Shown here piece by piece: positions 13,590 to 41,670 of a stretch of DNA of 64,000 nucleotides (within the stretch, counting starts at the first letter, position 1; each line of letters begins with the position of its first letter). The stretch comes from Thiothrix sp. GTDB lineage: Bacteria; Pseudomonadota; Gammaproteobacteria; Thiotrichales; Thiotrichaceae. The notes beneath the pieces were generated by a model. That model was not told the DNA's origin. It made no database searches and saw nothing but the letters and a program-made list of their open reading frames with translations. The position numbers were made by a program, and so were the translations under genes. The stretch spans positions 5,149 through 69,148 of the forward strand of contig NZ_JAQTLS010000016.1 in NCBI RefSeq assembly GCF_028714775.1. Direction: 5' to 3'.

Positions 13590-13632
13590 GGCGGCTTCCA
13601 TTTATTGTTGTATTCATGCGGAAGCCTCCAAT

Positions 13633-16864: not shown

Positions 16865-19800
16865 ATGAAGCGTAAAACGTGGTTTTATGCCTTGCCGTTG
16901 GTATTGGCGGTGCAAGGTGCTTTGGCTGGGACAAACTTGGTTACGGACGGCGGTTTTGAAAGCGGTTCGCTAGCATGGGCAAGTACCAAATCCATCCTCA
17001 CCCTTGACCCTGTGGCAGCTTATGCCGGACAAGCTGGGATGAAAGTCAATTCCGCCTATAGCGGGTGTGCTACCGGGGCACTGTACACCTTGAACACCGC
17101 CAACCTGCAAAATGGCACACTCTACGAATTTGGGGCGCGGGTACGCTTGAGCAGTGGTGTGGGCAGTTCTGCCAACCTTTCCCTTGGTTTGATCAAGAAC
17201 GGGGCTAGCCCAATCACCCTGGATGGCGAGCAATCCAGCTACGATGCCGGGGTTTATCCCGACAAATGGACGCAGGTGTTTGGGGTGTGGCAAGCCAGTT
17301 TTACCCCCACCGACACGCTCAAAGTCTGTATTAGCGGGGCTGCCAACAAACCGTTCCATGTGGATGAAGTGTTTGTGAAACCACTGACCACAGACGAGGT
17401 TGGCTACCAACCGCCCGCAACGCTGGATACTTCGGCCTTGATCCATGCTGATGGCAACCGCTTGGTGATGGGGACGCAAAAAACCCCGTTCCTGATGAAA
17501 GGGATCAACGTTTACCTGTATGACCAAGGCAATGATGTTGACCCACCGCCACCCCTCGACGATTTCAAGTACAAAAATATTGATGCGGCATCTTATAAAG
17601 AAATCCGTGACCTCGGCTTCAACAGTGTGCGCCTGATGCTATCTTACAACCTGTTTGAGAACAGCACCGCACCCGGTGTCTACAAGAATGAAGGCTGGGC
17701 ATTAGTTGACCGGCATATCCAGTGGGCCAAACAAAACGGCTTGCGTTTGATACTGGATATGCACGTCCCACCCGGTGGCTACCAAAGCAACGATTTCACT
17801 GGGTTTGGTAGCCGTGCTGACCTGAAAAAACGCTTGGAAGATTTGTGGGTGGCCATCGCCCAGCGTTACCGCAATGAAACCACCATCGCCGCTTATGACT
17901 TGATTAATGAACCGCACATCAACAACTGGTTTATATACGCCCAAACCCTGATCAGCAAAATCCGTGCGGTGGACAGCAACCATTTGATTGACGTGGAGGT
18001 GTCTTTCCACCCCAGCGACATCGGCATGTACAAACTGGCGGACAACAATATCCTGTACGATGTCCACTGGTATGAGCCTTGGAGTTGGGCAGGTTCACAT
18101 ACCAACAATACGCCTTACGTTGGCACATTGGCACAGTTCAAACAGCAGCTCCGTGAAGGGGAAGGCTTGACTGAGTTCTACGATGCCGCCACTGACAGCT
18201 TTACCGTGCCGTTCAACATTGGTGAATACGGGGTCACGTTCGAGAAATACGAATTGGCAGGTGTAAACGGGGAGACATGGTTGCAACACGCCAATGCCGC
18301 GTTTGACCATTTCGGTATCAGCCGCCAGTTGTTCCACTACAACGAGCCGAACTTTGGCATTTACCGGGGTTGGAACAGCTACCCTAATGAACACACAAAG
18401 ACCACTGTGGCTCTCAAGGAAGCACTGCCAACCATCAACGGTGTTAATGGCATCAATCCCGATGCCTTCAGCTTCACCGACCAGACCGACGTGGCACGAT
18501 CCACCGTAATCACCTCCGACACCATCACCGTTAGCGGTCTTAAAGTGGCGGCAGACATCGGCGTGAGTGAAGGGGAATACCGCATCAACGGCGGGGCGTA
18601 CACATCTGCGGCGGGGACGGTCAACAATGGTGACACGGTGCAAGTACAGCACACATCATCTGCCAGTTATGCCACTGCCACCAATACTGTCCTGAGCATC
18701 GGCAGTGTGTCAGACACCTTTAGCTCCACCACGCTTGCAGACCCGAATGATACGACCCCCAACCCATTCAGCTTCACCGACCAAACGGGCGTGGCGCTAT
18801 CCACCCTGACGGAATCCAACGGTATCACCCTTGGTGGGATCAACAGTGCTGCGCCGGTTTCAGTCACTGGAGGGGAATACCGCATCAACGGCGGGGCGTA
18901 CACCTCGGCAGCGGGGACGGTCAATAACGGCGACCAAGTAAAGGTGCGCCACATGTCTTCCGACCTGTCTAAAACCAAGGTGAACACTATCCTGACCATC
19001 GGCAGCGTATCCGACACGTTCACCAGCACCACAGCTACCGCCGACACCAAGCCGAATGCCTTCAGTTTTGCTGCACAGAAGGATGTTCCGCTGAACAGTA
19101 CGGTTGAATCCGCCAACATCACAGTCAGCGGGATCAATGCGCCTGCCAGCATCAGCGTAAGTTCCGGCAGTGGCAGCTCCTACAGCGTCAACGGCGGAGC
19201 TTATAGCAGCACAGCGGGTAAAGTGAGCAACGGGGACAGCGTGAAGGTGCGGCATACCTCGTCCGGCAAATCTAATGCCAGTGTGACCACCACCATCACT
19301 ATTGGCGGGGTCAATGGAGCCTTTAAAAGCACCACTGGTGATGTCACACCTAACACTTTCAGCTTTGTCACCAAAGCCAGCGCCGCCCTTGCCACACCCG
19401 TTGAATCCGGGGTCGTGACCATCGGCGGCATCACGCTTCCGACCGCCATCAACGTGGCAAACGGCGAGTACCGCGTCAACGGTGGAACATATACCGCTAC
19501 TGCTGGGACGGTCAGCAACGGCGACAAGGTGCAAGTGCGGCACACGACTTCCGCTAGTTTCTCCACCAGCGTCACTACCACGTTGACTGTCGGCGGGGTC
19601 AACGGCGTGTTCAAGAGCACTACGTTGGCGAAGGACACTAGGCCGGATGCTTTCATCTTCAACGCGCAGACGGGTGTTGCGCCTTCAACAGTGGTTGAAT
19701 CCAATGCCATCACGGTCAGCGGGATTAATGCAGCAGCCAGCATCAGTGTTACCGGCACGGGTGCGGCCTACAGCATCAACGGTGGGGCATACACCAGCGC

Positions 19801-19930
19801 TGCGGGGACGGTCACTGAGGGCAAGACCGTGAAGGTTCGCCACACTTCCTCCAGCAAGGCACTTACCGCTATGAGCAGTGTCCTAAACATCGGCGGGGTC
19901 AAAAGTACTTTCACCAGCACTACGCGCTGA
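16865..19930 (+). CDS. Secreted multidomain GH5 cellulase: CBM4/9-like module + GH5 catalytic domain + five tandem ~98-aa C-terminal domains
   Basis: Signal peptide, then N-terminal GTNLVTDGGFESG... (CBM_4_9-like). The GH5 core has GFNSVRLMLSY, YDLINEPH (acid/base Glu) and FNIGEYGV (nucleophile Glu). Five repeats follow. Confidence 0.85.
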   Translation: MKRKTWFYALPLVLAVQGALAGTNLVTDGGFESGSLAWASTKSILTLDPVAAYAGQAGMKVNSAYSGCATGALYTLNTANLQNGTLYEFGARVRLSSGVGSSANLSLGLIKNGASPITLDGEQSSYDAGVYPDKWTQVFGVWQASFTPTDTLKVCISGAANKPFHVDEVFVKPLTTDEVGYQPPATLDTSALIHADGNRLVMGTQKTPFLMKGINVYLYDQGNDVDPPPPLDDFKYKNIDAASYKEIRDLGFNSVRLMLSYNLFENSTAPGVYKNEGWALVDRHIQWAKQNGLRLILDMHVPPGGYQSNDFTGFGSRADLKKRLEDLWVAIAQRYRNETTIAAYDLINEPHINNWFIYAQTLISKIRAVDSNHLIDVEVSFHPSDIGMYKLADNNILYDVHWYEPWSWAGSHTNNTPYVGTLAQFKQQLREGEGLTEFYDAATDSFTVPFNIGEYGVTFEKYELAGVNGETWLQHANAAFDHFGISRQLFHYNEPNFGIYRGWNSYPNEHTKTTVALKEALPTINGVNGINPDAFSFTDQTDVARSTVITSDTITVSGLKVAADIGVSEGEYRINGGAYTSAAGTVNNGDTVQVQHTSSASYATATNTVLSIGSVSDTFSSTTLADPNDTTPNPFSFTDQTGVALSTLTESNGITLGGINSAAPVSVTGGEYRINGGAYTSAAGTVNNGDQVKVRHMSSDLSKTKVNTILTIGSVSDTFTSTTATADTKPNAFSFAAQKDVPLNSTVESANITVSGINAPASISVSSGSGSSYSVNGGAYSSTAGKVSNGDSVKVRHTSSGKSNASVTTTITIGGVNGAFKSTTGDVTPNTFSFVTKASAALATPVESGVVTIGGITLPTAINVANGEYRVNGGTYTATAGTVSNGDKVQVRHTTSASFSTSVTTTLTVGGVNGVFKSTTLAKDTRPDAFIFNAQTGVAPSTVVESNAITVSGINAAASISVTGTGAAYSINGGAYTSAAGTVTEGKTVKVRHTSSSKALTAMSSVLNIGGVKSTFTSTTR
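18458..19927 (+). repeat. Five in-frame tandem repeats (294-300 bp) encoding ~98-aa beta-rich domains
   Basis: Units start at 18458, 18758, 19052, 19349 and 19643. Consensus: P-[DN]-x-F-S-F-x-x-Q-x-x-V...T-V-S-G-I...GEYRINGGAYTSAAGTVxNGDxVxVRHTSS...TLTIGGVxxxFxSTT. Confidence 0.85.
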
Positions 19931-20082: not shown

Positions 20083-20730
20083 ATGTTTAAGCACTGCCAA
20101 AGCAGGTCAGGGTTCCTACTCTTAGGTATCGCCACGCTGTTGGCGCTATTGGCCTTGACCACCCTTTTCGACCATGACCCAGCGGGTATGGATGCCTTTT
20201 TTGGGCTGAGCATGTTTAGCTTTGCCACGGGGATTCCCGGCCTATTCCTGTGTTTGCGTGCCACCGAGCCTGTGAAAACTGACACGCCGGGGTTAACAGC
20301 TTGGCTGCATAAAACCGTGAGGTCGATGGCGTGCTGCGAGTCTGGCATTGCCGCTGCATTGAACGCCATCGCTTTGATATTTTTGGGAATCACGCTGCTG
20401 ATGGCAGCAGATGCTTGGTTCAATGCAGACCCCGACGCGCAAGAAGGTGTAATGGGCGGTATGGTCATGACGGCGCTGGTCGGTCTGGCGGGAATAATGG
20501 CCTGCAAACCCCGGCAACCCACAACCGAAGCCCCGCGACATCCAGTAACCCATACACCGAAGGTACGCCCAACTGCACAAGGTTTGGGGAACTTCAAAGT
20601 GATGCGGCTCGCCTGCCCTGCCTGTAATGCCTCAATCCCGGCGCATCTGTGGAATGGCGGGCAAACCCACCTGAATTGCCCGTATTGCGGCACGGATGTG
20701 GTGGTACAGGAAACTGAAACCAGAACCTAG
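20083..20730 (+). CDS. Membrane protein with C-terminal zinc ribbon (hypothetical)
   Basis: The ATG at 20083 follows GGGAG. About 5 hydrophobic helices, with C-terminal CPACN...CPYCG. The overlapping minus-strand ORF looks non-protein-like. Confidence 0.55.
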   Translation: MFKHCQSRSGFLLLGIATLLALLALTTLFDHDPAGMDAFFGLSMFSFATGIPGLFLCLRATEPVKTDTPGLTAWLHKTVRSMACCESGIAAALNAIALIFLGITLLMAADAWFNADPDAQEGVMGGMVMTALVGLAGIMACKPRQPTTEAPRHPVTHTPKVRPTAQGLGNFKVMRLACPACNASIPAHLWNGGQTHLNCPYCGTDVVVQETETRT

Positions 20731-20753
20731 ACATCCCCACGCCAACAAAAAGC

Positions 20754-20774
20754 CCCGTATAACGGGGCTTTTCG
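20754..20774. terminator. Bidirectional intrinsic terminator between convergent genes
   Basis: AAAAA-GCCCCGT-ata-ACGGGGC-TTTT: a 7-bp GC stem flanked by A and T runs. Confidence 0.6.
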
Positions 20775-20790
20775 GTTTCAGCCAAGGGGA

Positions 20791-21210
20791 TTAGTTCATC
20801 GGCACACCCAAACCGTCGTCGAGGTATTTCTGCAAACGTTCGGTGCGGGTTTCGGTCATGGCTTGCAGTTCGCCATTGACCAACATCGGGTACATGCTGC
20901 CCCAGCACACCCGTATATCACCTTCGTCACAGGCAAACTGGGCGGCAATTTCAGCATCACGGAACGCAATCCACGCCTTTTGCGCGGCTTTCAGCTTGGC
21001 AGTGGCGGTTTTGTCGCTCTTGAATTGCGCCATCAACTTTTTCCAGGTGGCGTTGAGCTTTTTGTCCGCCGCCGCGTAATCATCGGCGGCGCACTGATTC
21101 ATTTCCATTTGGTTGCCGTCGGGGTTGCATTCGATCTCCCCGGCGGTAACGGTGGTGGTGGATAACAGCAATACCAAAGCGGTGCTGATAACAATTTTCA
21201 TCATAGTCAT
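20791..21210 (-). CDS. LprI-family (DUF1311) periplasmic protein
   Basis: Signal peptide, then the DUF1311 pattern MNQCAADDYAAADKKLNATWKKL...AQKAWIAFRDAE... Confidence 0.8.
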   Translation of the reverse strand: MTMMKIVISTALVLLLSTTTVTAGEIECNPDGNQMEMNQCAADDYAAADKKLNATWKKLMAQFKSDKTATAKLKAAQKAWIAFRDAEIAAQFACDEGDIRVCWGSMYPMLVNGELQAMTETRTERLQKYLDDGLGVPMN

Positions 21211-21293
21211 TTCCCATTATTTAATAAATATGTGTAGTCCAAAAAAATCAGAGAATTGAACCATCAATTACTCCGATTCTGCATCATTCATAT

Positions 21294-21752
21294 TCACTTA
21301 CCAAATTTGGCGCGTTCCAGCGACTGCCTCCATAAGGATTCATTATTTACCAAAAAAGCTACGCTATCAGCTTGATCATTGATATTTTTAAAATACACCT
21401 TCAACATTTTTCGTCCAAATACGACTTTACCAAGATGGCTATCCACAAGCTCTACATGATTAATATCTTGCATGGGAATCACCAACTCGGTTGAGAAAAA
21501 TGCGGCCTTGTACCACAACTCCGTTGCTGTTAGTGCCAGCGCACCATTTCCCCGGAGCTGGAGCCGCCCTTTACTTTCCACCCCTACAAAATAAGCGCCA
21601 GCATCAGAAAGTATTGGCTTATCAAGCGGATAACGGCTTTCCAGAACCTCTTGCCCTGATTGCCCTATCCGACTCCACAACAACCAAAAAGCTACCAGCA
21701 CAATACTGACAATGACAATAACACCAGCAATAATTACAAGCACATTATTCAT
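21294..21752 (-). CDS. Single-pass membrane protein with PH/GRAM-like cytoplasmic domain (hypothetical), last gene of the radical-SAM operon
   Basis: N-terminal TM helix VLVIIAGVIVIVSIVLVAFWLLW followed by a ~110-aa beta-rich domain (LQLRGNGALALTATELWYK...KVYFKN). Its ATG overlaps the stop of the upstream gene (ATGA). Confidence 0.6.
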   Translation of the reverse strand: MNNVLVIIAGVIVIVSIVLVAFWLLWSRIGQSGQEVLESRYPLDKPILSDAGAYFVGVESKGRLQLRGNGALALTATELWYKAAFFSTELVIPMQDINHVELVDSHLGKVVFGRKMLKVYFKNINDQADSVAFLVNNESLWRQSLERAKFGK

Positions 21753-23704
21753 GAAACCTTCTCCAATTTTACCAGAGACTGACTTATCTTCTGATTGGTT
21801 ACTGCTTTCAGGAGACCTTTACGTTGCCATTCTTCCAGTTGATATACACCTTCAGTGATAACCAATGATAAATACTTGGCTCCATCCGTGATGATCAATT
21901 GTAATGCCAATAAATACTCAAGTGCCTCACCGATTTCATCTACTGAGAATTCAGGTAAATTCTGCATTAATAACGTCCGCGAGGTCGGTGCATGTAGCGC
22001 CAGCAAAACTGCACGACGGCTGCCTTGCAATGCGTGCCGCAGCGGACTTCCCCTCCGGCTGTCTTCTACCTGTAATGTATCCCCTTCGCGCTTAACAATG
22101 ATACACTTCGGCTCCGCATTATCACCACGCCATGCCCCAGTCCACAGCTCACTCTCCAGCAGAAGAGCATCATAGGCTGTATTGTCTAATACCCCTTTCC
22201 AATCGGCTTCATGATAATAGGCCACTTTGCGAATATTGACACTATCACTGGGATAAAGCTCCTCGTACCAACGCATAGGGCGTAAATTCGTTGTCCAATG
22301 CTCTTCTTCAAAAAAATAAGGGCTAAAGCGATGGCACTCTACTTTGGGTGTTCCACCATAAGCAGGGCGTAAATGACGTAGTTGCGGGAGTAACTTCACC
22401 ATATTGGCATAATCCTCTGCCATTTCCCCCGGAATACGAATCAAATTATTCCAATAAACCGTAATCCCCTGTTCCTGACAAGTGCGCATAAAATAAATAT
22501 TCTGTAAAACCGTCACACCTTTACGCATCTGCTTCAGGATGTTATCGGACAGCGATTCAATACCGGGTTGTAAATACAATACTTTGGCCGCAGCCAATTG
22601 CTCGATTTGATGTTGCCGCAGATTGGTTTTGACTGTCCAAAAATACTCAACATCTGAACGAGGTAAATTATTTTGCAATCGTGGAAGCAAGTCATGAAAA
22701 TATGACATTGGCATAATATTATCTGCCGCTTGAAACCGTTTCACCCACGGATAACGTGCCGCCAAAGTATGCAATAGTGCTAGCGTATTATCTGCCGAGC
22801 GAGCACGATAATTCATGCCATCCCCATTCAATCCACAAAAGGTGCAATGCTGTTTCTGCCCCCACCAGCAACCTCGACTGGATTCAAAAGGAATCAAAAC
22901 CCGCATACGCCAATTCGGGTCTTGCAGATAGTTGACATTTTGCGCCTCCGTGAAGAAATCACTAAAATCCGGGGCAGGAATACGATCCAACGTTTCGCTA
23001 TCAATAGGTTGGTGAGGTTTATCTTTTATCACCTCTCCATCTGATGTTTGGCGGTACAAAATTCCTTGTAAACCGGATGGTGTTCGTTCTTCCAGCATCG
23101 CCTGACACAACGGTACAATAACGTCATCCGCTTCTCCGGTGGAACAGGCATCTATCCAATTCGCTACCCGCATCAGTTCTTCCCCCATTTCTCCGTGAAA
23201 ACATGCACCACCGTAGAGCAGTTTCACATGGGGGAAACGTTGTTTGAGACGACGCCCCAAAGCCAGGGCGGGCAGTGTCTGGAAAAATGAACAACTAAAC
23301 GCAACCACCTGCACGGGCGCAACGGCCAACAAACGCGTTATACATTGATCAAGAAACGCAGGCACAATCTGGTGGCGAATTTGATGTAACCATGCAGGTA
23401 AATCTTTGACATGTGGAATCCCCTCTAACTCATCCCCTGAAAGGCTCAAAAAGTCTTCTTCTGACAGCCCGAACTCCCGTTGCCACGCCTCTTGGGCAAA
23501 CAGCCATTCACCTATCTGGGTTTCCACACCTTTAAAACGGGCAATAATTTCGTATGCACCCGCCCCTATCAAACGTGAAAATGCCATATTGAAAGGAAAC
23601 ACTTGCGCGGCAATTCCTGCCTCAGCCAATTGAGCCTTGAATTGCCCTAACGCCAAACTCGGTGTTGTGATGGAGCCAAAGGGCATTTGCACCAGATGAA
23701 TCAT
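21749..23704 (-). CDS. B12-binding-domain (class B-type) radical SAM enzyme, RiPP-maturase-like
   Basis: 651 aa. N-terminal IHLVQMPFGSITTPSLALGQFKAQLAEAGI... (Rossmann-like B12-type half). Cluster motif SRGCWWGQKQHCTFCGLNG (Cx7Cx2C). I recognise this as the pattern of a family annotated as RiPP-maturation radical SAM (TIGR03975-like); this is from memory and has not been searched. Confidence 0.85.
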   Translation of the reverse strand: MIHLVQMPFGSITTPSLALGQFKAQLAEAGIAAQVFPFNMAFSRLIGAGAYEIIARFKGVETQIGEWLFAQEAWQREFGLSEEDFLSLSGDELEGIPHVKDLPAWLHQIRHQIVPAFLDQCITRLLAVAPVQVVAFSCSFFQTLPALALGRRLKQRFPHVKLLYGGACFHGEMGEELMRVANWIDACSTGEADDVIVPLCQAMLEERTPSGLQGILYRQTSDGEVIKDKPHQPIDSETLDRIPAPDFSDFFTEAQNVNYLQDPNWRMRVLIPFESSRGCWWGQKQHCTFCGLNGDGMNYRARSADNTLALLHTLAARYPWVKRFQAADNIMPMSYFHDLLPRLQNNLPRSDVEYFWTVKTNLRQHQIEQLAAAKVLYLQPGIESLSDNILKQMRKGVTVLQNIYFMRTCQEQGITVYWNNLIRIPGEMAEDYANMVKLLPQLRHLRPAYGGTPKVECHRFSPYFFEEEHWTTNLRPMRWYEELYPSDSVNIRKVAYYHEADWKGVLDNTAYDALLLESELWTGAWRGDNAEPKCIIVKREGDTLQVEDSRRGSPLRHALQGSRRAVLLALHAPTSRTLLMQNLPEFSVDEIGEALEYLLALQLIITDGAKYLSLVITEGVYQLEEWQRKGLLKAVTNQKISQSLVKLEKVS

Positions 23705-25155
23705 GTTACCTCCAACACTTCGGTCGTTGCAGAAGGCTCTTTATCCTGTGGTTTCAGGATAACCTTATCTACACACAATTCCTGTGGGTTAGTATAAACC
23801 ATTTCAGCATCCCAATCGGTCGGCAAAATAGCAGCACTTTTCTCCGCCCGTAGCAGCAATCGCTCCTTGATATTGTATTTCCAGCTTGGACAAGGTAAAG
23901 AAGCCGCCTCACCACGTGTATCATCTGCGTGCAAAAATTTATACGCACACGCGCCCGCACAATTCGGCAGTAATTTGCAGTTACGGCATGCATCGTTATT
24001 GAACGGCGACCAACTCAACCATCTCATGGTTTTTTCAGAGCGGATAGCTTTATCCATATCAAAAATAGAGCCAATCGCATGTTGCGGATATGTCACGGTA
24101 TCCCAACACTTATGAATATCACCGGAGGGAATCACAATAAAACTGCTCGGACGGATTGCACCACAACTCCCATGAAACCGGGGAGGATAAGGCAGCCCTG
24201 TCAGTCCTTTATCAAACGCATAACGGTAAATCCGGGTTTCCAACTGGCCATAATCCGACTTGCTCATGCAAGCCCCTTCGACCGAATGGCAACCAACTGT
24301 CATCGCCTCAATGGGAGCAAAATACAACCGGAAATTTTGCTGGTTGGCTAAACCTTCTGCCGCCAACACATCCAGCAATTGAAAAACGCCCGTACTATTA
24401 CGATGGTCAATATTGACACGGATATTGATTTTTAGCGGGGTATGAGTCACCACTTCTTTCAGATTTTTAATGATTTTATCGAACGTATTGCCCCCCGATA
24501 ACAAGAAGCGACGGCTATCGTGGTATACCTGATTACCATCCAATGTCACCTGTACCGTTTTTACTCGTTTTTTCACCAGGGTTTGAGCCACCGCGAGCGT
24601 CAAACGATAGCCATTCGTAACCGCCATGGCATCGTATTGAATATTTCTTTCATCACACACAGCCATAAAACGGTCTGACAGGGCTTCAATCACGTTCATA
24701 CGCAACAATGGTTCACCACCATACCAGGCAATATGCACATGATTTAACTCATGGCTGAGTTTTAAAACAAAATCCACCACCGCATCCTGAACCGTCTGCC
24801 CCATGGTTTCGATCGGTTTATCTTGTCCCTGGAAGCAATAATCACAGGCAAAATTACAGGCCAAGGTGGGGGCAACCGTCAGGACTAATGTCCGACGGTT
24901 AAAACGGTGTAGTCGATATTGTCCATGCAATAACTCCAACTCATCGGTTTCCGGTGTTACCAAATAGCCACCGTAAAACAATTCTGCGGCTGTGCGACTA
25001 TCGGTAGTTTCCCGCCCTTGGGCAATGTCCTGAAACACCTGCGCCTCGGCTGGCTCCCATACGGCTAGTGCGCCGCTCATACCGTTGTATGCCAATTCAC
25101 GCCCATCTTTTAACGGCGCAGTAATCACGTAACGGGAGGTTTTGTATCGACTCAT
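23701..25155 (-). CDS. Radical SAM/SPASM-domain peptide-modifying enzyme (anaerobic sulfatase-maturase-like fold)
   Basis: The start is trimmed to MSRYKTSRYVITAPLKDGRELAYNGMSGAL (ATG 25155, GGAG ribosome-binding site). It has the canonical CNFACDYC (CxxxCxxC) and C-terminal auxiliary-cluster cysteines including CRNCKLLPNCAGAC (Cx2Cx5Cx3C SPASM signature). Confidence 0.9.
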   Translation of the reverse strand: MSRYKTSRYVITAPLKDGRELAYNGMSGALAVWEPAEAQVFQDIAQGRETTDSRTAAELFYGGYLVTPETDELELLHGQYRLHRFNRRTLVLTVAPTLACNFACDYCFQGQDKPIETMGQTVQDAVVDFVLKLSHELNHVHIAWYGGEPLLRMNVIEALSDRFMAVCDERNIQYDAMAVTNGYRLTLAVAQTLVKKRVKTVQVTLDGNQVYHDSRRFLLSGGNTFDKIIKNLKEVVTHTPLKINIRVNIDHRNSTGVFQLLDVLAAEGLANQQNFRLYFAPIEAMTVGCHSVEGACMSKSDYGQLETRIYRYAFDKGLTGLPYPPRFHGSCGAIRPSSFIVIPSGDIHKCWDTVTYPQHAIGSIFDMDKAIRSEKTMRWLSWSPFNNDACRNCKLLPNCAGACAYKFLHADDTRGEAASLPCPSWKYNIKERLLLRAEKSAAILPTDWDAEMVYTNPQELCVDKVILKPQDKEPSATTEVLEVT

Positions 25156-25181
25156 GCCTATTCTCCGGGTCACTTTCAACG

Positions 25182-25216
25182 AAAAAAACTTTCCCCTCCC
25201 GATCGCATGAGGAAAG
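25182..25216 (-). terminator. Hairpin plus U-tract between the Cys-repeat protein gene and the radical-SAM genes (putative partial terminator/attenuator)
   Basis: Minus strand reads CTTTCCTC-atgcgatcgg-GAGG(GG)AAAG followed by TTTTTTT. It begins 11 nt after the stop at 25227-25229. Confidence 0.5.
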
Positions 25217-25226
25217 CTATCTGAAG

Positions 25227-27695
25227 TCAAATCCCCGGAATAATAGGGATAAGATCCACAGCGCAAGCATCTGCTGCACAAGCATCCGCTGGACATAAAT
25301 TGATGGCACAAACATTGGCGGCACAAGCATCTGCACCACACGCATTAATCGGTGACACTTTGGCAGCACATGCCGTTGCACCTGCCACTGCCGCGCCACA
25401 AACATCCCCACCACACGCATCCCCGCCACAGGCTGCTGCACCACATGCAGCAGCGCCACAGGCTGCTGCGCCGCAAGCTGCCGCGCCACAGGCATCCGCA
25501 CCACATGCTGCAATCCCCGCCAGCGCAGCACCACACGCAGCCGCACCGCACGCACCGGCACCTGCAACATCTGCGCCACAAAGTGCAATGACCGAAACCG
25601 CAGCACCACAAGCCCCTATCAATGTCGCAGCGGCACCACAAGCAGCGGCGGCACACGCATCTGCCCCACAAGCATCCGCACCGCAGGCATCCGCGCCACA
25701 AAGGTCAGCACCACAGGCTTCTGCCCCACAGACTGCTGCACCACAAACAGCTGCTCCACCTGATGATGTGCTGGTTGCCCCACTGCCCGCTGGTGCAATA
25801 GAAATACTCCCCTCGACAGGAGACAATGCCCACAACTGGTTTAGCCCACCATTCCATGGGTAAGTGCTAACCTCACCACCATCTCCTGTCGTACTTAAAT
25901 CCAGTGCCAAACCACTGTGCAGTGCTTCAATCCGGAACTTTCCACCCTGGACTTCCGTGATTTTCCAACGCTGATTATTGGCATCATTTGAAGCCCACGA
26001 ATAAACCTTTGCGCCTACATTACCAAAAGCATAGACATCCATTGACTGGTTGTTAGCCGCATTCAGGATTCGGTACGTCCCATCAGGGTGAGCAACAAAT
26101 TTCCATTGCTGATTTGCAGCCCCACTCAACTTGCGTTGCCTGACTTGGGCATCGTTAGCCTCAGCAGTCAGAACCAGTCCTGAGCTAAGCGGTGAAATGG
26201 TATACGTTTGAGCTGGCCCGCCTTCCGCCGTGCTATTGTCAAACATACGGATAATCTCAAATGTCTCCCATGCTCCACACGCGGCACGGTTAGCATTGGC
26301 ATCCCCACCAGCTTCAGCCACCAAATACTTTTGCTGAGGAACAGACTTGAATGCAATTTTATCCCCCACACTCATGAAACTATTGGAAGCAGTAGCCCCT
26401 GCACGAATAACCTGCCACTGCTCAGACGTACCCGCCGCCGAGCTAACGGTGGTCACATCTCCCCCCGCAGTGGCAGACAAAAACGTATTGTGCTGCGTTT
26501 TTAGCGATACGATGTCACCGAAACTGGCAAGTGGCATGGTCGTGGTTGGACCAGAACGGACCAGCGTGAAGGTTTCCCCAATCGCATTTGATGCAGCATC
26601 CGCCCGGACATTACCATTTGTTTCTGTCATCCACTTGCCATGAGCAGTTTTTAGCTGAATCTTGTCACCAAAACGCAAAGCCCCCTTGGGTACAACAACC
26701 CCCATTTGTTTAACAATAATGGATGATGCTTTATCATTAAAATTTGCGACAATGGTTTCAGCACAATCAGAGTAATAAGTGCGGAAATCGCCTTGAAAAT
26801 CAGGGTACTCATATAAAGTTACCAACATACCATAGGGAACACGCAGGGAACTGATAGTATTATCAGGCAACCCCATAGCCGTTGCATCTTTGTATACCCC
26901 AACTCCTAGCGTAGCTGAACTGCCTCTATAATACGTATGTTCATAAAAGGTAATAACTTTCTGGACAACAGCCGACGACGCTTGATTATCTACATTACTT
27001 TCCAAGCGGGGCGTGTCTGCCGTATATTTGCGGACTTCACCCCTAAAATTGGGATGCTGATAAAGGGAAATTTCCAAACCTTGCGGCACTCTAACAGAGG
27101 AAATATCATCGTTATACATACTTAAGTCATTTATATCATAACTCCCGATCCCCAATATATAATTAGCCCCCGTATAATTATCCCCCTGATAAATGGTCAC
27201 TGCGAGTTCCTGGGCAACATCTTTGGAGCGGACAGCCGACAATATCCATAACTGATTCAAATTACCATGCCAAGGGTAAGTGATAATTTCACCCCCATCA
27301 CCAAGGGTACCCAAATCCAGAGCCAAACCACTATGCACAGCTTCGATACGAAAATGCCCGGCCTGAACTTCAGTTATTCGCCAACGCTGGTTATTGGCAT
27401 CGTTTGAGTCCCACGAATAAACTTTTGCACCCTGCCCGCCAAACGCATACACATCCATCGACTGATTAGTAGCGATATTCTGGATTCGGTATGTGCCGTC
27501 AGAATTTGCCACAATTTTCCATTGCTGGTTGGTAGCTTCATTCCATTTATATTGCTTAATCTGCGCGCTTCTCGCATCAGCCGTAAGTGCAAAACCCGAA
27601 TAGGCAGATGAAATTGCGTATACCTGATCCTGATTGCCGCCCACTAGCGGGCTATTTACAGAATGGGGGGCTAAAGGTTGGACAAGGTATTTCAT
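25227..27695 (-). CDS. 822-aa multidomain protein: ricin-B lectin / two beta-gamma-crystallin domains / fascin-like beta-trefoil / ricin-B lectin / C-terminal 27-Cys pentapeptide-repeat tail. Putative substrate of the downstream radical-SAM enzymes
   Basis: Domain motifs are listed in the sub-features below. No signal peptide is recognisable (MKYLVQPLAPHSVNSPLVGGNQDQ). The tail runs ...VCGAAVCGAEACGADLCGADACGADACGADAC...CGAAACGAAACGAAACGAAACGGDAC...CPADACAADACAVDLIPIIPGI. Confidence 0.85.
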   Translation of the reverse strand: MKYLVQPLAPHSVNSPLVGGNQDQVYAISSAYSGFALTADARSAQIKQYKWNEATNQQWKIVANSDGTYRIQNIATNQSMDVYAFGGQGAKVYSWDSNDANNQRWRITEVQAGHFRIEAVHSGLALDLGTLGDGGEIITYPWHGNLNQLWILSAVRSKDVAQELAVTIYQGDNYTGANYILGIGSYDINDLSMYNDDISSVRVPQGLEISLYQHPNFRGEVRKYTADTPRLESNVDNQASSAVVQKVITFYEHTYYRGSSATLGVGVYKDATAMGLPDNTISSLRVPYGMLVTLYEYPDFQGDFRTYYSDCAETIVANFNDKASSIIVKQMGVVVPKGALRFGDKIQLKTAHGKWMTETNGNVRADAASNAIGETFTLVRSGPTTTMPLASFGDIVSLKTQHNTFLSATAGGDVTTVSSAAGTSEQWQVIRAGATASNSFMSVGDKIAFKSVPQQKYLVAEAGGDANANRAACGAWETFEIIRMFDNSTAEGGPAQTYTISPLSSGLVLTAEANDAQVRQRKLSGAANQQWKFVAHPDGTYRILNAANNQSMDVYAFGNVGAKVYSWASNDANNQRWKITEVQGGKFRIEALHSGLALDLSTTGDGGEVSTYPWNGGLNQLWALSPVEGSISIAPAGSGATSTSSGGAAVCGAAVCGAEACGADLCGADACGADACGADACAAAACGAAATLIGACGAAVSVIALCGADVAGAGACGAAACGAALAGIAACGADACGAAACGAAACGAAACGAAACGGDACGGDVCGAAVAGATACAAKVSPINACGADACAANVCAINLCPADACAADACAVDLIPIIPGI
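25230..25745 (-). repeat. Coding 15-bp-periodic repeat: 27 Cys at exact 5- or 10-residue spacing (aa 651-811) plus an 11-aa hydrophobic C-terminus
   Basis: Counted unit by unit. Every inter-Cys distance is 5 (20 times) or 10 (6 times). Units are GADAC x5, GAAAC x5, then GAEAC, GADLC, GGDAC, GGDVC, PADAC, AADAC, AANVC, AINLC and others. Identical peptide units use different synonymous codons. Confidence 0.9.
25818..26210 (-). other. Ricin-B-type lectin domain 2 (aa ~496-626), a close paralog of domain 1
   Basis: QQW / QRW / QLW motifs again. Long identical stretches with domain 1 (NQSMDVYAFG, GAKVYSW, SNDANNQRW, ITEVQ, FRIEA, HSGLALDL, GDGGE, TYPW, LNQLW). Confidence 0.75.
26244..26684 (-). 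other. Fascin-like beta-trefoil domain (aa ~338-484)
   Basis: Three internal repeats FGDKIQLKT..GKWM / FGDIVSLKT..NTFL / VGDKIAFKS..QKYL, each ending in a W/F-x-[LVI] segment (ETFTLVR, EQWQVIR, ETFEIIR). Confidence 0.55.
26706..27203 (-). other. Two beta/gamma-crystallin-type domains (four Greek-key motifs, aa ~165-330)
   Basis: The pattern [IV]T[IF]Y[QE]..[NY][YF].G......G.Y.....L..NDxISS[VL]RVP.G..[IV][ST]LY[QE][HY]P[ND]F[RQ]G recurs twice. Confidence 0.7.
27231..27626 (-). other. Ricin-B-type lectin (beta-trefoil) domain 1 (aa ~24-155)
   Basis: Three QxW motifs (QQW, QRW, QLW) spaced about 45 aa apart, with GTYRIQN...SMDVY...FRIEAVHSGLALDL. Confidence 0.75.
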
Positions 27696-27756
27696 AAGTA
27701 AGCTCTCTCTTAAATTCGTTAACAGCTCTAATTCATGTAAGCATCAGGATAGTGAA

Positions 27757-27776
27757 AAGCCCCAGCTAAGTGGGGC
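27757..27776 (-). terminator. Intrinsic terminator after the beta-propeller-like gene, separating it from the Cys-repeat protein gene
   Basis: 7-bp stem AGCCCCA / TGGGGCT with a 6-nt loop, followed on the minus strand by TTTTC. Confidence 0.6.
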
Positions 27777-27784
27777 TTGATAAT

Positions 27785-28573
27785 TCACTGGTCATCAAAC
27801 GTCACTCCCGTATAGGTAATACGCGGGAAGTTCATTTTTTTCAACTGTTGCCCATCGACACTGTAGCGGTACAAATTATCTTTCGTGGAAAGGTAAACAT
27901 CATTGCTGTCACCTGCCGCAATGCCGGTTGGGCTAAAACCTGTTTCCACGAAATTTTCTTGCTCCAACCGGGCATCACGGACAGTGAAACCGCGCTGCGA
28001 ACCGTTGTAAGCGGCATAAACCTTGCCACCCTTAACGGCGATACCGGAATAGTTGATACCTGGCTCAGGGAATGTCATATCAACCAATAACTGCCCATCG
28101 TTACTGTACTTATACAAATGGTTACGTGCCGCCAAATAAATGAGGCCATTATCATCAAGCGCAATCGCACTCGGCGCAAACGGTGTGGGGAACACATCGG
28201 ATTGCTCCAGGGTTTCCGCATTGCGCACGCTAATACCCGTCTGCGAACCCGTATAGGTCACATAAATATTCACGCCATGCAAAGCTACCCCGGTGTATTT
28301 GATGGTGGAATCACCCCACGCAAAATGAGCCAACTCCTGACCATCCTTGTCGTAGTGGTAGATATTGTTTTTCGACAAGGTATAAAACGTATCGCCTTCA
28401 CCATCGCCAATCGCACCCGGTGCAAAAGTCATCGGTAAAAATGCCGACTGCGTTAAGTTCTCATCCCGCACCGTCACCCCGCGTTGTGAGTCGGTGTAGG
28501 AAGCATAAATTGTCCCTGCTTGGGCATGACCAAACATCCCCAATACCAAACCTGACAATAACCATTTTTTCAT
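27785..28573 (-). CDS. Secreted repeat protein, beta-propeller-like (three ~80-aa repeats)
   Basis: The start is trimmed to MKKWLLSGLVLGMFGHAQA. The repeated block is [IV]Y[AV][ST]Y[TN]GSQ.G[VIF][ST]VR[DN]..L.Q......F.P..IA.....[VI]YL....[NH]LY[KR]YS.DGQ.L...... Confidence 0.65.
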   Translation of the reverse strand: MKKWLLSGLVLGMFGHAQAGTIYASYTDSQRGVTVRDENLTQSAFLPMTFAPGAIGDGEGDTFYTLSKNNIYHYDKDGQELAHFAWGDSTIKYTGVALHGVNIYVTYTGSQTGISVRNAETLEQSDVFPTPFAPSAIALDDNGLIYLAARNHLYKYSNDGQLLVDMTFPEPGINYSGIAVKGGKVYAAYNGSQRGFTVRDARLEQENFVETGFSPTGIAAGDSNDVYLSTKDNLYRYSVDGQQLKKMNFPRITYTGVTFDDQ

Positions 28574-28654
28574 AAACCCCTCGCTCTCAAATGACCAAAA
28601 ACCGCTTACTTGGCAGTAACTTTCCAGCCACACCAGTTGCCACTGATAAACTTG

Positions 28655-29383
28655 TCACTTCACCGTGATCTTAAACGCGAATTTGCCTTTCCACGGATCA
28701 GCCTTCTTACACTCGACCACCTGAATTTTGTAGTCGCCTGCAATTGTGGGCTTGACCTTTGCATTGCTGTGGCAGGAAAGATCCATGTCATTGGCGTTTT
28801 CACCCTTGGGGTCAGTGATATAGATGGAAACGGAACCATCACTTTTCTTGTCCAGCTGTTCCACCGTCATGGTCTGGCCTTTACCTACGCCGATGAGATA
28901 GTTCTGCTCACCGTCGAAATCGGCAAGCTTGCCCGTAACTACCGCGCTGGATGCGCCCTTGGCAAACTTGATCCGGGTTGGAGCAGCACTGGCTTTACCC
29001 TTGGGCTTTGCTTCCTTTTTGTCCCATGCGCAAATCTCAGCATTTTTGCCAACCCAGCAACCACCCTTGAGTTTGAAATCTTCACCCAGCAACTCCTGTG
29101 CGTGGGATGCCTGCTCTGTGCCATTCCAGGAAGCCCCCGCCACGCCTTTTTCCAGCATATTCAGGTAAACAAAATACTTGTCCCCAAACAGGCGGAAAGA
29201 ACCATCCTTGTCGGCATCGTATATGCACGTACCCTTGAGGTAGGTTTTGCCCTTGACCTTCAGTGAGCAATCCACTTCGCGGCCTTCCGCTTCCTTGCGC
29301 CAATCTTCAGCATGGGCGACTGTTGCTTGCCCGAATAAGCTTGCGGCTAATAATGCAGCCACAGACAGTAATTTCATTTCCAT
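28655..29383 (-). CDS. Secreted hypothetical protein
   Basis: Signal peptide MKLLSVAALLAASLFGQATVAHA. Two Cys-containing halves joined by a Lys-rich linker. The start is placed at 29383 by GAGG spacing; 29389 and 29377 are also possible. Confidence 0.6.
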   Translation of the reverse strand: MEMKLLSVAALLAASLFGQATVAHAEDWRKEAEGREVDCSLKVKGKTYLKGTCIYDADKDGSFRLFGDKYFVYLNMLEKGVAGASWNGTEQASHAQELLGEDFKLKGGCWVGKNAEICAWDKKEAKPKGKASAAPTRIKFAKGASSAVVTGKLADFDGEQNYLIGVGKGQTMTVEQLDKKSDGSVSIYITDPKGENANDMDLSCHSNAKVKPTIAGDYKIQVVECKKADPWKGKFAFKITVK

Positions 29384-32882: not shown

Positions 32883-35486
32883 TTACCCCGCCACTACCGG
32901 AATCGGCACAAGCTTCTGCGCCGCCTTCTGGTAATGCTCCATCTTATCGAAGTTCAGGTAACGGTAAATGTCACCTGACATGCTGTCGATCTTCTTCGCG
33001 TATTCCATGTACTCTTCAACCGTAGGCAGTTTACCCATGATTGCCGCCACAGAAGCCAGTTCCGCAGAAGCCAGGAACACATCCGCGCCAGTACCCAAAC
33101 GGTTCGGGAAGTTACGGGTAGAAGTAGACACAGCAGTGGAGTTTTCAGCGATACGCGCCTGATTCCCCATGCACAGTGAGCAACCCGGCATTTCCATACG
33201 CGCACCGGCACGACCGAAAATGTTGTAGTAACCTTCGTCACTCAACTGGGAAGCATCCATCTTCGTCGGTGGCGTGATCCACATGCGCGTTGGGATTTGC
33301 TTGCTGGTAGCATCCAACAACTTACCTGCGGCACGGAAGTGACCGATATTGGTCATGCAAGAACCGATGAAGACTTCATCAATCTTGCGGCCTGCAACTT
33401 CAGACAACAGACGTGCATCATCTGGGTCATTCGGTGCGCACAGGATAGGCTCTTTGATCTCATCCATGTTGATTTCGATCACAGCCGAGTATTCCGCATC
33501 AGCGTCAGCACGCATCAGGCTTGGGTTAGCCAACCATGCTTCCATGCCTTTGATACGGCGCTCGATAGTACGTGGATCGCCGTAACCTTCCACCAACATC
33601 CACTGCAACATCACGATGTTAGAACGCAGGTATTCAGCAACCGATGCTTCAGACAACGCAACCGTACAGCCAGCAGCAGAACGTTCAGCAGAAGCGTCAG
33701 ACAGTTCAAAGGCTTGTTCGACCGTCAGGTGATCCAGACCTTCGATTTCCAGCACAGTACCGTTGAAGACGTTCTTCTTACCTTTCTTTTCCACTGTCAG
33801 CAGACCCATTTGGATCGCTTTGTGTGGAATGGAATGCACGAGGTCACGCAGGGTGATACCCGGTTGCATTGTGCCCGTGAAACGTACCAGTACAGATTCC
33901 GGCATATCCAAAGGCATAACGCCCGTCGCCGCCGCAAACGCCACCAAACCAGAACCCGCCGGGAAGGAAATACCAATCGGGAAACGGGTATGCGAGTCAC
34001 CACCAGTACCAACGGTATCCGGCAACAACATGCGGTTCAACCATGAGTGGATTACACCATCGCCCGGACGCAGGGAAACACCGCCACGGGTCATGATGAA
34101 ATCAGGCAGCGTGTGGTGAGTGGTTACGTCAACTGGTTTAGGGTAAGCAGCGGTATGGCAGAAAGACTGCATAACCAAGTCAGCCGAGAAGCCCAAGCAA
34201 GCCAAGTCTTTCAGCTCGTCGCGGGTCATCGGGCCAGTGGTATCTTGTGAACCTACCGTGGTCATTTTCGGTTCGCAGTACATGCCGGGGCGTACACCCG
34301 TCATGCCACAAGCCTTACCGACCATTTTCTGTGCCAGTGTGAAGCCTTTACCCGTGTCAGCAGGTTGCTCAGGAGTGCGGAACAGGTCAACTGGCGGCAG
34401 ACCCAGTGATTCACGCGCTTTCGCGGTCAAACCACGCCCGATGATCAGGTTGATACGACCACCCGCACGGGCTTCGTCCAACAACACTTGGGTTTTCAGG
34501 CCGAAAGTGGAGATGACTTCATCCGTACCGTGACGCTTGGCAACGCCTTCATACGGATAAACGTCAACCACGTCGCCCATGTTCATTTGGGCAACATCCA
34601 TTTCGATTGGCAGTGAACCGGAATCTTCCATCGTATTGAAGAAGATTGGTGCAATTTTGCTACCGAAGCAGTAACCGCCCACACGCTTGTTAGGAATCCC
34701 CGGCATGTCATCGCCAAAGAACCACAGCACAGAGTTGGTTGCTGATTTACGTGAAGAACCTGTACCAACAACGTCACCAACGTAAGCAACCGGGAAACCT
34801 TTCGCTTTCATGGCTTCGATTTGCTTCAGCGGGCCTACGCTGCCTTGAACTTCTGGCTCGATACCGTCGCGTGCCATTTTCAGCATCGCGTTGGCATGGA
34901 GTGGGATGTCAGGGCGTGACCACGCATCTGGCGCAGGAGACAAGTCGTCAGTGTTGGTTTCACCGGGAACTTTGAAGACCGTAACGGTGATTTTCTCAGC
35001 CACTTCTGGCTTGGAAGTAAACCACTCGCCCGCTGCCCAAGAAGCCATAACTTGCTTCGCTGCTGCGTTGCCTGCTTTGGCTTTTTCTTCCACATCGTGG
35101 AACGCATCAAACATCAGCAAAGTATGTGACAAAGCAGTAGCGGCTGCCGCTGCGGTCACGTCGCTATCCAATGCAGCAATCAACGGTTGTACATTGTAGC
35201 CACCCAGCATCATGCCCAGCACTTCGACAGCGCGGACTTGGCTCACTAGACCACAGCTCACGTCACCTTTAGCAACCGCAGCGAGGAAACCGGCTTTCAC
35301 ATAAGCGGCTTCGTCCACACCAGCGGGAACGCGGTTTTCCAACAGGTCAACCAGAAACGCTTCTTCACCCGCCGGAGGATTTTTCAGCAATTCAACCAGT
35401 GCAGCCGTTTGTGCAGCATCCAATGGCTTGGGTGGGACGCCTTGGGCGGCGCGTTCTTCAACGTGTTTGCGGTACGCTTCCAACAT
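32883..35486 (-). CDS. acnB: Aconitate hydratase B (bifunctional aconitase 2 / 2-methylisocitrate dehydratase)
   Basis: 867 aa. [23 protein letters not shown]-terminal HEAT-like domain. Fe-S ligand regions ([18 protein letters not shown]). Confidence 0.95.
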
Positions 35487-35512
35487 TCAAATGATCTCCT
35501 CAAAACAAAATC

Positions 35513-36817
35513 TTAACGCTTTTCTACCGGCACATAATCGCGTGCTGCTGACCCCATGTACAACTGACGCGGGCGACCGATGCGGGATGATTCATCACCC
35601 ATCATTTCATCCCATTGCGAAATCCAGCCGATGGTACGTGCCAGCGCGAACATAACCGTAAACATACTGACCGGAATCCCCATGCTCAGGAAGATGACGC
35701 CGGAGTAGAAGTCCACGTTAGGATACAGGTTACGCGCTTTGAAATATTCATCATTCAACGCCACCTGTTCCAGTTCGCGGGCAATCGCAAACAACTTCTG
35801 GTTCGGGTCATTAGCAGGCAAGCGATCCAGAATCTCATTCGCCAGCTTGCGGATGATCTTAGCGCGTGGGTCGTAATTTTTATACACACGATGCCCAAAG
35901 CCCATCAAACGGAAACGGTCATTCTTGTCTTTGGCACGGTCAACCCAATGCGACAATGGCAGGCCAGACTTTTCGATTTCACGCAGCATGGTAATCACAG
36001 CTTCGTTTGCCCCACCGTGTGCAGGCCCCCACAGGGATGCAATCCCCGCTGCCACCGCTGCAAACGGGTTAGCTTCGGATGAACCCGCCAAACGCACTGT
36101 TGATGTAGACGCATTCTGTTCATGGTCAGCGTGCAGGATCAGGATGACTTCCAACGCCTTGGCATGGAGCGGGTCAATCTGGTAAGGCTCAGTCGGTACG
36201 GAGAACATCAAATGCAGGAAATCTTCCGCATACGACAAGTCATTGCGTGGGTACACAAACGGTAAGCCCACGGAATAACGGTAGCTCCACGCCGCGATGG
36301 TCGGCATTTTCGCAATCAAACGGTGCGCAGAACGTTGGCGCTGTTCCGGGTCGTGGATATTCATGTCATCGTGGTAGAACGCCGACAGCGCCCCAACCAC
36401 CCCGACCATGGTTGCCATCGGGTGCGCGTCACGGCGGAAACCCCGGTAGAAATACTGCACTTGGTCATGCAGCATGGTATGGCGGGTAATCATGTACTCG
36501 AAGTCAGCCATTTCCTTAGCAGTTGGCAGCGTCTTGTTCAACAGCAAGTAACATACTTCGAGGAAACTGCTGTGTTCCGCCAATTGTTCAATGGGATAAC
36601 CCCGGTAGAGCAGCGTCCCTGCATCCCCATCCAGATAGGTAATTTCGCTGGAGCAACTGGCAGTTGACATAAAGCCGGGGTCATAGGTGAAATAACCCAA
36701 TTCCTTGTACAGCTTGCGGATGTCGATCGTCTTTGCCCCGACGGTCGGTTCCAAGACATCCAGTTCAACCTGCTTACCCGTTGCATTATCAGTAATGGTT
36801 ACAGTCTGTTTGGTCAT
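35513..36817 (-). CDS. gltA: Citrate synthase (type II)
   Basis: 434 aa with [13 protein letters not shown] and the [15 protein letters not shown] signatures. Confidence 0.95.
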
Positions 36818-36853
36818 GTTTCAATCCACTCTTACGGAAAGTCAATAAATCAA

Positions 36854-38892: not shown

Positions 38893-38904
38893 CCTGCGTT
38901 CCTT

Positions 38905-40347
<1,443 letters not shown>

Positions 40348-40352
40348 TTACC

Positions 40353-41603: not shown

Positions 41604-41670
41604 TGTATACACATCCTCGATTGTATTATTTGAAACCGCGCCAAGGCGCTTTAGATTTTTGGTTTTCTGG

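Follow-up and report, generated by a model that had tools for sequence, protein, structure and literature searches.

A Thiothrix multi-lectin protein with a Cys-every-fifth tail of the CefA family, encoded beside radical-SAM genes

What is the role of a protein tail in which Cys recurs at every fifth residue, with a few gaps and without ever falling out of step? Such a tail ends an open reading frame (ORF) of 822 residues in a 64,000-nucleotide stretch of Thiothrix sp. DNA (contig NZ_JAQTLS010000016.1; the whole stretch is referred to here as the window). The protein is 100% identical to MDD5394245.1/WP_301016635.1 (database protein P0033), which comes from a Thiothrix sp. metagenome-assembled genome. 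The tail belongs to NF038108, a curated, uncharacterized family of peptides synthesized on ribosomes and modified after translation (RiPPs), and it is very likely a substrate of the radical S-adenosylmethionine (SAM) enzymes encoded next to it. We argue that it is probably the core region of a RiPP-like NF038108 protein, modified by thioether cross-linking and C-methylation.

The Cys register of the tail

25227..27695, minus strand: full coding sequence, 822 residues plus stop codon, a lectin/crystallin body followed by the Cys-every-fifth tail
25263..25757, minus strand: pentad array, 33 units of [G/A/P]-[A/I/V]-[D/A/N]-[A/V/L]-C, residues 647-811
25230..25352, minus strand: C-terminal module, residues 782-822, PINAC GADAC AANVC AINLC PADAC AADAC AVDLI PIIPGI

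Translation of the ORF places the pentad tail in its C-terminal 176 residues. The tail contains 27 Cys, between residues 651 and 811 (window 25263..25745), and successive Cys are separated by 5 residues (20 times) or 10 residues (6 times), with no other value. All 27 residue numbers leave a remainder of 1 when divided by 5, and no tail Cys is out of phase; by our own arithmetic, the probability that 27 Cys would share one of five phases at random is ~5^-26. The body of the protein has two Cys, residues 311 and 473. Thus, the 27-Cys, 5-residue register claimed in the original prediction, which was made from the DNA sequence alone, is borne out. The units that it listed (GADAC and GAAAC five times each, GAEAC, GADLC, GGDAC, GGDVC, PADAC, AADAC, AANVC, and AINLC) and the C-terminal end, AVDLIPIIPGI, are all found on translation. 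The extent of the repeat was only partly right: the span from Cys651 to Cys811 stands, but the array begins before the first Cys, at residue 647 (window 25757).

Six of the 33 pentads lack Cys. Position 3 is occupied by Asp, Asn, or Glu in 16 of the 33, which places these residues two before the Cys position and three after the preceding one. Cys accounts for 15% of the tail residues, and Asp lies close by; the remaining composition is Ala/Gly/Val and hydrophobic. None of the 27 Cys forms a CC, CxC, or CxxC pair. The last six pentads are the best-conserved stretch of the whole protein (alignments A2 and A4). The Cys, the position-3 Asp/Asn, and two Pro of the C-terminal module are invariant or almost so, the position-3 Asp/Asn being invariant within these six pentads. 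This module is also the sole element common to the lectin-type, short-leader, and DUF4280-fused proteins described below. Across 25 full-length homologues (35-59% overall identity), there are 6 to 37 in-phase Cys per tail and none out of phase, and the register continues unbroken even through pentads that lack Cys. Judged from these alignments, the register of the tail is under strong selection.

The five GADAC units are encoded by five different 15-nucleotide strings, as are the five GAAAC units, with ~12 of 15 nucleotides in common on average in each set. Tandem Repeats Finder detects a decayed periodicity of 15/30/45 nucleotides with 66-76% matches. Because the same pentads differ in codons and the DNA periodicity has decayed, the repeat is maintained at the level of the peptide, as had been predicted, and recent DNA slippage is ruled out as its source. 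The G+C content is 60.7% in the tail (25230..25835), 46.9% in the body (25836..27695), and 52.8% in the whole window, and the higher value in the tail is tentatively attributed to its use of Ala, Gly, and Cys codons. ORFs of 187, 130, and 118 residues that overlap the tail, either antisense to it or in another frame (25300..25863, plus strand; 25217..25701, minus strand), were rejected as genes; they shadow the GC-rich repeat, the AAPQ-rich 187-residue ORF among them. No other ORF in the window has four or more Cys at a 5-residue spacing and might represent a further precursor gene, except one that reads the tail itself in a wrong frame.

The family to which the tail belongs

Against the NF038108 model, "Cys-every-fifth RiPP peptide CefA", the whole protein scores 66.7 bits and the tail alone 75.7 bits (cut-off 30), with the best stretch, 46 residues at 773-818, close to the C-terminus. 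The original prediction held that no family of this composition had been described. However, NF038108 is named for this Cys spacing, and the name given to the identical protein in GenBank by the Prokaryotic Genome Annotation Pipeline (PGAP) is "Cys-every-fifth RiPP peptide CefA [Thiothrix sp.]". Thus, the feature as such was already known and is no discovery. The locus departs from its family name in two ways: the adjacent maturase belongs to TIGR04463 rather than to CefB (NF038107), and the substrate is an 822-residue protein of five domains rather than a small precursor peptide.

The radical-SAM genes beside the tail gene

23701..25155, minus strand: radical SAM/SPASM RiPP maturase of family TIGR04463, 484 residues, MDD5394244.1 (589.6 bits; cut-off 525)
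21749..23704, minus strand: B12-binding radical-SAM "RiPP maturation C-methyltransferase" of family TIGR03975, 651 residues (597 bits; cut-off 281.85)
21294..21752, minus strand: 152-residue protein with one transmembrane helix, which is N-terminal

These three genes directly follow the tail gene on the same strand, and stop-start overlaps join the SPASM gene to the methyltransferase gene and the methyltransferase gene to that of the 152-residue protein. The four cassette genes are present in GenBank under the same names (MDD5394245.1 to MDD5394242.1). A promoter and terminator scan of 20700..28800 gave counts that did not exceed those of shuffled sequence.

The CxxxCxxC motif of the SPASM enzyme, C100/C104/C107, is invariant (alignment A1), and its SPASM domain (residues 331-413) matches TIGR04085 with 53 bits (cut-off 27). 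A longer, 546-residue version of this ORF, with a GTG start and reaching 25341, is an ORF-calling artefact; the true start is 25155. Against CefB, the enzyme scores 232 bits and fails to reach the cut-off of 600, as do the partner enzymes tested from six other loci. Its closest named relatives in NCBIfam are the Clo7bot, CefB, PapB, CcpM, and SCIFF maturases, and its nearest sequence relatives of solved structure include thioether-forming CteB (5wgg). The 152-residue protein, whose gene is translationally coupled to that of the B12 enzyme, has no sequence match in Pfam, NCBIfam, or the PDB; a role in immunity or handling is possible.

Homologous loci and a census of the family

A scan with the SPASM enzyme, using one genome per species, yielded 56 TIGR04463 loci, and in 35 of them an Ala/Gly/Cys-rich tail ORF adjoins the SPASM gene. 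ORF clustering of the 23 closest loci finds the SPASM enzyme in all 23, the B12 radical-SAM enzyme in 20, a lectin-type tail protein in 17, and, at the same position, a homologue of the 152-residue protein (34-45% identity) in 11. These counts agree with the predicted linkage of the tail to adjacent radical-SAM genes. No conserved protease or exporter is present within ~6 kb on either side of the 23 loci. The tail proteins at the closest loci (enzyme at least 54% identical) are large, 387-915 residues, and end in ...NLCPADACAADACAIDIIPIIPG/FI. Their bodies are reshuffled from ricin B, tectonin, beta/gamma-crystallin, fascin-like trefoil, and bulb-type lectin domains, and they come from at least five phyla (Gamma- and Alphaproteobacteria, Myxococcota, Cyanobacteria, Chloroflexota, and Acidimicrobiia of the Actinomycetota).

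A wider census compared a profile of the last 65 residues with 1.84 billion cluster representatives, giving 562 matches at E <= 1e-3 and 99 at E <= 1e-10. The family C-terminal motif ends 66 of the top 150 matches; the median length of these proteins is 661 residues, and 45 have at least 350. Further large members carry ConA-like/laminin G, pentaxin, or tachylectin domains, and a full-length search found ~30 more proteins of the same architecture, several of them named CefA by PGAP. The family is rare, yet it is spread across many phyla, and lectin fusion is its usual form: the typical member is a multi-lectin protein of 650-900 residues. An assembly or frameshift artefact was rejected as the source of the lectin-tail fusion, which recurs in 12 or more independent genomes and among 45 large cluster representatives.

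With the tail as query, a homology search recovered 32 proteins of 187-338 residues, nearly all ending in ...DAC-x-x-D-x-IP-x-IPGI. The N-termini of these relatives vary: some carry an uncharacterized domain of ~170 residues ending in ELSDxQLExVAGGKG (the short type), and others carry DUF4280, which we take to be PAAR-like. Relatives with such other N-termini still lie beside the same enzyme families; locus L004, a DUF4280 fusion (8001-8918), has both TIGR04463 and TIGR03975. The proteins P0009, P0010, P0012, P0013, and P0022 are also fused to DUF4280. In the DUF4280 fusions, the upstream Cys spacing alternates between 10 and 7 (a period of 17) rather than 5, and the ...DACxxDxIPxxPGI module and both enzymes are retained. 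For the ~170-residue leader, sub-threshold PDB matches (3cnu, E = 0.09; 3bn8, E = 0.32) hint at an SCP2-like domain, and its VAGG end has a sub-threshold match to Nif11 (9zn4, E = 0.43). The 187-residue P0006, from a contig of 918 bp, joins an NADH-dehydrogenase-like membrane N-terminus (PF00146) to the last ~55 tail residues, nearly identical to those in the window; it is probably the product of chimeric assembly or of an erroneous gene call on this very short contig.

Other tail subtypes at TIGR04463 loci end in ...CGAVACVALPIGGNW (...PIGGNW), ...ANAGWPP, or ...GPCxINVIPLVPGT. They occur in Bacteroidota (L030, L031, L035, L037, L056), Sorangium (L040), cyanobacteria (L033, L059), and Rhodospirillales (L025, L027, L028), and at L037 the tail is fused to a bulb-type mannose lectin. 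These subtypes have neither a nearby B12 radical-SAM gene nor an NF038108 match.

The lectin body, the N-terminus, and the predicted structure

27675..27695, minus strand: conserved N-terminal motif MKYLVQP, residues 1-7
27246..27620, minus strand: first ricin-B beta-trefoil lectin, ~residues 26-150 (Pfam PF00652 and PF14200; AlphaFold2 predicted local distance difference test score, pLDDT, ~90)
26706..27203, minus strand: two beta/gamma-crystallin domains, ~residues 165-330 (PF00030, 83 bits, in two stretches; confident in AlphaFold2)
26235..26678, minus strand: fascin/FRG1-like beta-trefoil (DUF7910), ~residues 340-487 (PF25490 and PF06229; fascin matches in Foldseek)
25818..26210, minus strand: second ricin-B beta-trefoil lectin, ~residues 496-626 (PF14200, best at 527-603; AlphaFold2 pLDDT 65-80)
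25758..25814, minus strand: Ser/Gly/Thr/Ala linker between body and tail, residues 628-646

In the AlphaFold2 model of the full-length protein, residues 1-627 are confidently folded (pLDDT 70-95), and a Foldseek search with this body returns fascin and the multi-trefoil lectin components of toxins. For the tail, the picture is different. Residues 628-822 have a pLDDT of 21-30 and no secondary structure in the same model, which used a 25-sequence alignment. The tail modeled by itself, with a 36-sequence alignment, also lacks secondary structure (mean pLDDT 41; predicted TM-score, pTM, 0.13). Both runs used shallow alignments of a low-complexity sequence and represent the unmodified chain alone; a fold may appear after modification.

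At the other end of the protein, M1, V5, and P7 are almost invariant (alignment A2), and a start of the type M-[KQ]-[YF]-[LI]-V-Q-P is common to the lectin-type and short-type tail proteins; among the lectin-type proteins, MKYLVQP hardly varies. The version in the short-leader relatives is M-[QKDE]-[FY]-I-[DNE]-x-P, the DUF4280 fusions lack the motif, and 37 of the 66 census members begin with M-x-[YF..]-[ILV]. AlphaFold2 models residues 3-7 as a strand packed on the body (pLDDT ~85). MKYLVQP, which lies more than 600 residues from the tail, is a candidate recognition or leader element. Recognition by the enzymes could involve either end of the protein, that is, MKYLVQP and/or the C-terminal DxIPxIPGI module. 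The linker (residues 628-646) was inspected for a double-glycine leader such as ELSDxQLExVAGG, and none is present.

A proposed mechanism and the points against it

For the type of cross-link, the sites of methylation, the recognition elements, and the biological role, we infer the following scheme. The 822-residue protein would be made with a folded body, composed of ricin B, two beta/gamma-crystallins, a fascin-like trefoil, and a second ricin B, and its final ~195 residues would form an unstructured, Ala/Gly/Cys-rich tail. Predicted disorder of the tail, next to a body that is modeled confidently, is what a core region would be expected to show. The TIGR04463 SPASM enzyme would move along the tail and convert the thiols of the periodic Cys to intramolecular thioether bridges, by analogy with CteB, PapB, and the SCIFF maturases; whether its chemistry is indeed thioether formation we consider an even bet. 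Each thiol would be joined to a carbon at a fixed distance of a few residues, and Asp, Asn, or Ala at position 3 of the pentad would be the best candidate. PapB makes six serial thioethers from Cys to the beta-carbon of Asp in CX3D units and tolerates CX0-6D (PMC9413430). Serial cross-linking of Cys, possibly to Asp/Asn, would fit with what its relatives CteB and PapB do. The TIGR03975 B12 enzyme would then install C-methyl groups, and the product would be a rigid, hydrophobic, protease-resistant rod. This rod would either remain on the glycan-binding body that targets it or be clipped from it later. Because the cassette contains no peptidase or exporter and the junction has no double-glycine motif, the end product may remain a conjugate of protein size. 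A tentative suggestion, somewhat doubtful at present, is that the modified tail is brought by the lectin body to a surface bearing glycans.

Several observations weigh against this scheme. The SPASM enzyme falls well short of the characterized equivalogs PapB (NF047865, 115 bits; cut-off 340) and SCIFF (TIGR03974, 87 bits; cut-off 425), so the assignment of thioether chemistry is an analogy. Since Asp, Asn, or Glu is present at position 3 in 16 of the 33 pentads, bonds of the Cys-Asp type cannot serve every Cys. The short-type tail genes of L001 and L002/L003 have 2-4 paralogous TIGR03975 genes on their flanks and lack a SPASM enzyme. Thus, the tail need not always have a TIGR04463 enzyme, and its Cys may serve chemistry other than that of the SPASM protein. 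A literature search by family names and motif strings (e.g., IIPIIPGI and DACAADAC) found nothing relevant, that is, no paper, experiment, structure, or chemistry on any family member, and PMC10288494 does not mention the NF038108 family. Finally, a global phase over 160 residues is not needed by local rings, which hints at an extra constraint, structural or on processivity, that the model leaves unexplained. (Of the SPASM-less loci, L001, at 346-5296, contains another tail gene, which is truncated where the contig ends, and L002 spans 8001-16863.)

A more speculative extension, to which we give perhaps one chance in a handful, is that these proteins represent a class of protein-sized products. 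A variable body (at least five kinds of lectin, the PAAR-like DUF4280, or the ~170-residue leader) would carry a stapled, C-methylated rod of 150-200 residues that acts as a membrane-active or toxic warhead or as an anchor, with the 152-residue protein as immunity or handling factor. If the rod were to adopt a solenoid of 5n residues after modification, the never-broken phase would be explained.

Alternative explanations

The original prediction cast the tail as a right-handed quadrilateral beta-helix of the pentapeptide-repeat kind, with ladders of Cys along one edge, and such a structure might form before cross-linking or only after it. When the last six pentads are read as ADACA ANVCA INLCP ADACA ADACA VDLIP, they do resemble the A(D/N)LXX consensus. 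Furthermore, the phase that persists in 25 homologues through Cys-less pentads is needed by a solenoid and not by local motifs. However, with E values of up to 10 allowed, the 197-residue tail matches neither PF00805 nor any other Pfam family. The sole pentapeptide-type model found in NCBIfam, Alr5209, gives a meaningless score (E = 4.7, 7.4 bits; cut-off 125), and membership in the pentapeptide-repeat family was rejected on these scans. In the 25 homologue tails, position 1 is G in 62% of units (otherwise A or P), position 2 is A in 60% (otherwise I or V), position 3 is D in 34%, A in 30%, and N in 12%, position 4 is A in 68%, V in 17%, and L in 6%, and position 5 is C. The residue at position 4, the center of the pentapeptide unit, is therefore mostly too small to fill the core of such a helix, where Leu or Phe is expected. 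AlphaFold2 usually models pentapeptide-repeat proteins confidently, and here it gave no secondary structure in either run. Disorder of the tail had been named beforehand as a result that would speak against the beta-helix, and disorder is what was predicted, for the unmodified chain. In addition, the 10/7 alternation in the distant DUF4280-fused tails has no 5-residue period. Taken together, these findings make stacked Cys on a beta-helix improbable; a beta-solenoid is retained at this low level because the phase is unbroken. More improbable still is a second proposal in the original prediction, dense binding of metal or Fe-S clusters, in which the tail would be an unmodified, metallothionein-like protein and the radical-SAM genes would act elsewhere. 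The high content of Cys with Asp nearby would suit such a role and is the only feature to suggest it. Against it stand the absence of CC, CxC, and CxxC pairs, all spacings being 5 or 10; an otherwise Ala/Gly/Val-rich, hydrophobic composition and a conserved extreme C-terminus, which are not features of metallothioneins; and the co-occurrence of the tail with RiPP-type radical-SAM maturases in at least five phyla and with three N-terminal architectures. This linkage to maturases, regarded as obligate, argues against unmodified thiols.

A stronger competitor, although still an unlikely one, assigns the Cys chiefly to the B12 enzymes, which would transfer methyl groups to or next to Cys or perform another cobalamin reaction, and leaves the SPASM enzyme with non-thioether chemistry, such as epimerization or C-C cross-linking. 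The tails of L001 and L002/L003, with their several TIGR03975 paralogues, are what this explanation would anticipate, as is the failure of the TIGR04463 protein to reach any characterized thioether equivalog. Because such SPASM-less loci exist, the explanation keeps a modest place. On the other hand, the closest named relatives of the SPASM enzyme are maturases of Cys peptides, and the tails ending in ...PIGGNW, ...AGWPP, and ...VIPLVPGT keep their periodic Cys with no B12 enzyme nearby. Thus, the SPASM enzyme also tracks Cys-rich tails, and we favor modification of the tail by both enzymes, with the SPASM protein acting on Cys.

Other features of the window

Directly upstream of the tail gene, 27785..28633 (minus strand) encodes a secreted-looking protein of 282 residues, with internal repeats of ~60 residues and weak matches to NHL and Mal s 1-like propellers; it is not conserved at the other loci. 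Of the ORFs examined, none near the cassette was recognized as a secretion-system or transporter gene. Elsewhere, the context is one of housekeeping genes: the window contains cellulase-family genes of glycoside hydrolase families GH9 and GH5 (11832..13601, minus strand, and 16865..19930, plus strand) and a block of tricarboxylic acid cycle genes (32883..50076) encoding aconitase B, citrate synthase, 2-oxoglutarate dehydrogenase E1/E2/E3, and the succinate dehydrogenase flavoprotein.

Comparison with known systems

NF038108 CefA is the closest known system. The Thiothrix tail shares with it a hidden Markov model score above cut-off, the Cys period, and the C-terminal ending, and differs in having a TIGR04463 partner, rather than the maturase named CefB, and five folded domains within its 822 residues. 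To what was catalogued, the present analysis adds that the typical member is a multi-lectin protein and that the genes form a cassette of four, comprising the SPASM enzyme, the B12 radical-SAM enzyme, the tail protein, and a small membrane protein. Several points appear in no paper of the literature searched: this typical architecture, the unbroken phase in 25 homologues, the occurrence of the four-gene cassette in at least five phyla with no protease or exporter, and the pairing of an MKYLVQP N-terminus with a conserved ...DxIPxIPGI C-terminus.

The ranthipeptide (SCIFF) systems, freyrasin (PapA/PapB) and thermocellin (CteA/CteB), resemble this locus in having a SPASM maturase beside a Cys-rich substrate. 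They also have Cys-Xn-Asp/Glu/Asn motifs in the core, which are represented here by the 16 of 33 pentads described above. However, the Thiothrix tail has 27 Cys instead of 6, a strict 5-residue phase, and Asp/Asn/Glu in about half of its units. Its maturase lies outside the PapB and SCIFF equivalogs, its substrate is a large lectin with no recognizable cleavable leader, and a B12 radical-SAM enzyme is an additional partner. Proteusins (PoyA with PoyB/PoyC) share the TIGR03975 C-methyltransferase and a long, hydrophobic substrate rich in Ala/Gly/Val. In contrast, Pfam and NCBIfam scans of the 822-residue precursor found no match to the NHLP or Nif11 families that would mark a proteusin leader, and, unlike in proteusins, an epimerase gene is absent from the conserved cassette in the 23 closest loci. 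Periodic Cys are absent from polytheonamide; by analogy with it, heavy modification might yield a regular, membrane-active structure.

Pentapeptide-repeat proteins (PF00805) have the same 5-residue period and a similar pattern across the opening three residues of the unit (small Ala, Asp/Asn, and hydrophobic); they differ in their profile, which the tail does not match, in their Leu/Phe center, which is Ala here, and in the beta-helix, which is not predicted for the tail. Metallothioneins differ in having clustered CC, CxC, or CxxC chelating pairs. The string of beta-trefoils in the body resembles the lectin components of toxins (the mosquitocidal holotoxin MTX, 2vse; botulinum HA33; fungal 9s11), with Foldseek E values of 1e-20 to 1e-12. 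Global superposition is poor (TM ~0.2), and thus the likeness is one of domain type only. At the place of the "payload", where the toxins carry an enzymatic or pore-forming domain, the Thiothrix protein has its Cys-periodic tail. By the tests run, then, the protein belongs to none of the following: pentapeptide-repeat proteins, ranthipeptides of the PapB or SCIFF equivalogs, proteusins, and metallothioneins. If the proposed modification is correct, these proteins, with up to ~37 Cys per tail, would rank among the known ribosomal products of greatest size and cross-link density, and they would bring RiPP-type chemistry to a folded, glycan-targeting protein. As such, they would be of interest to natural-product miners, radical-SAM enzymologists, and peptide-stapling engineers.

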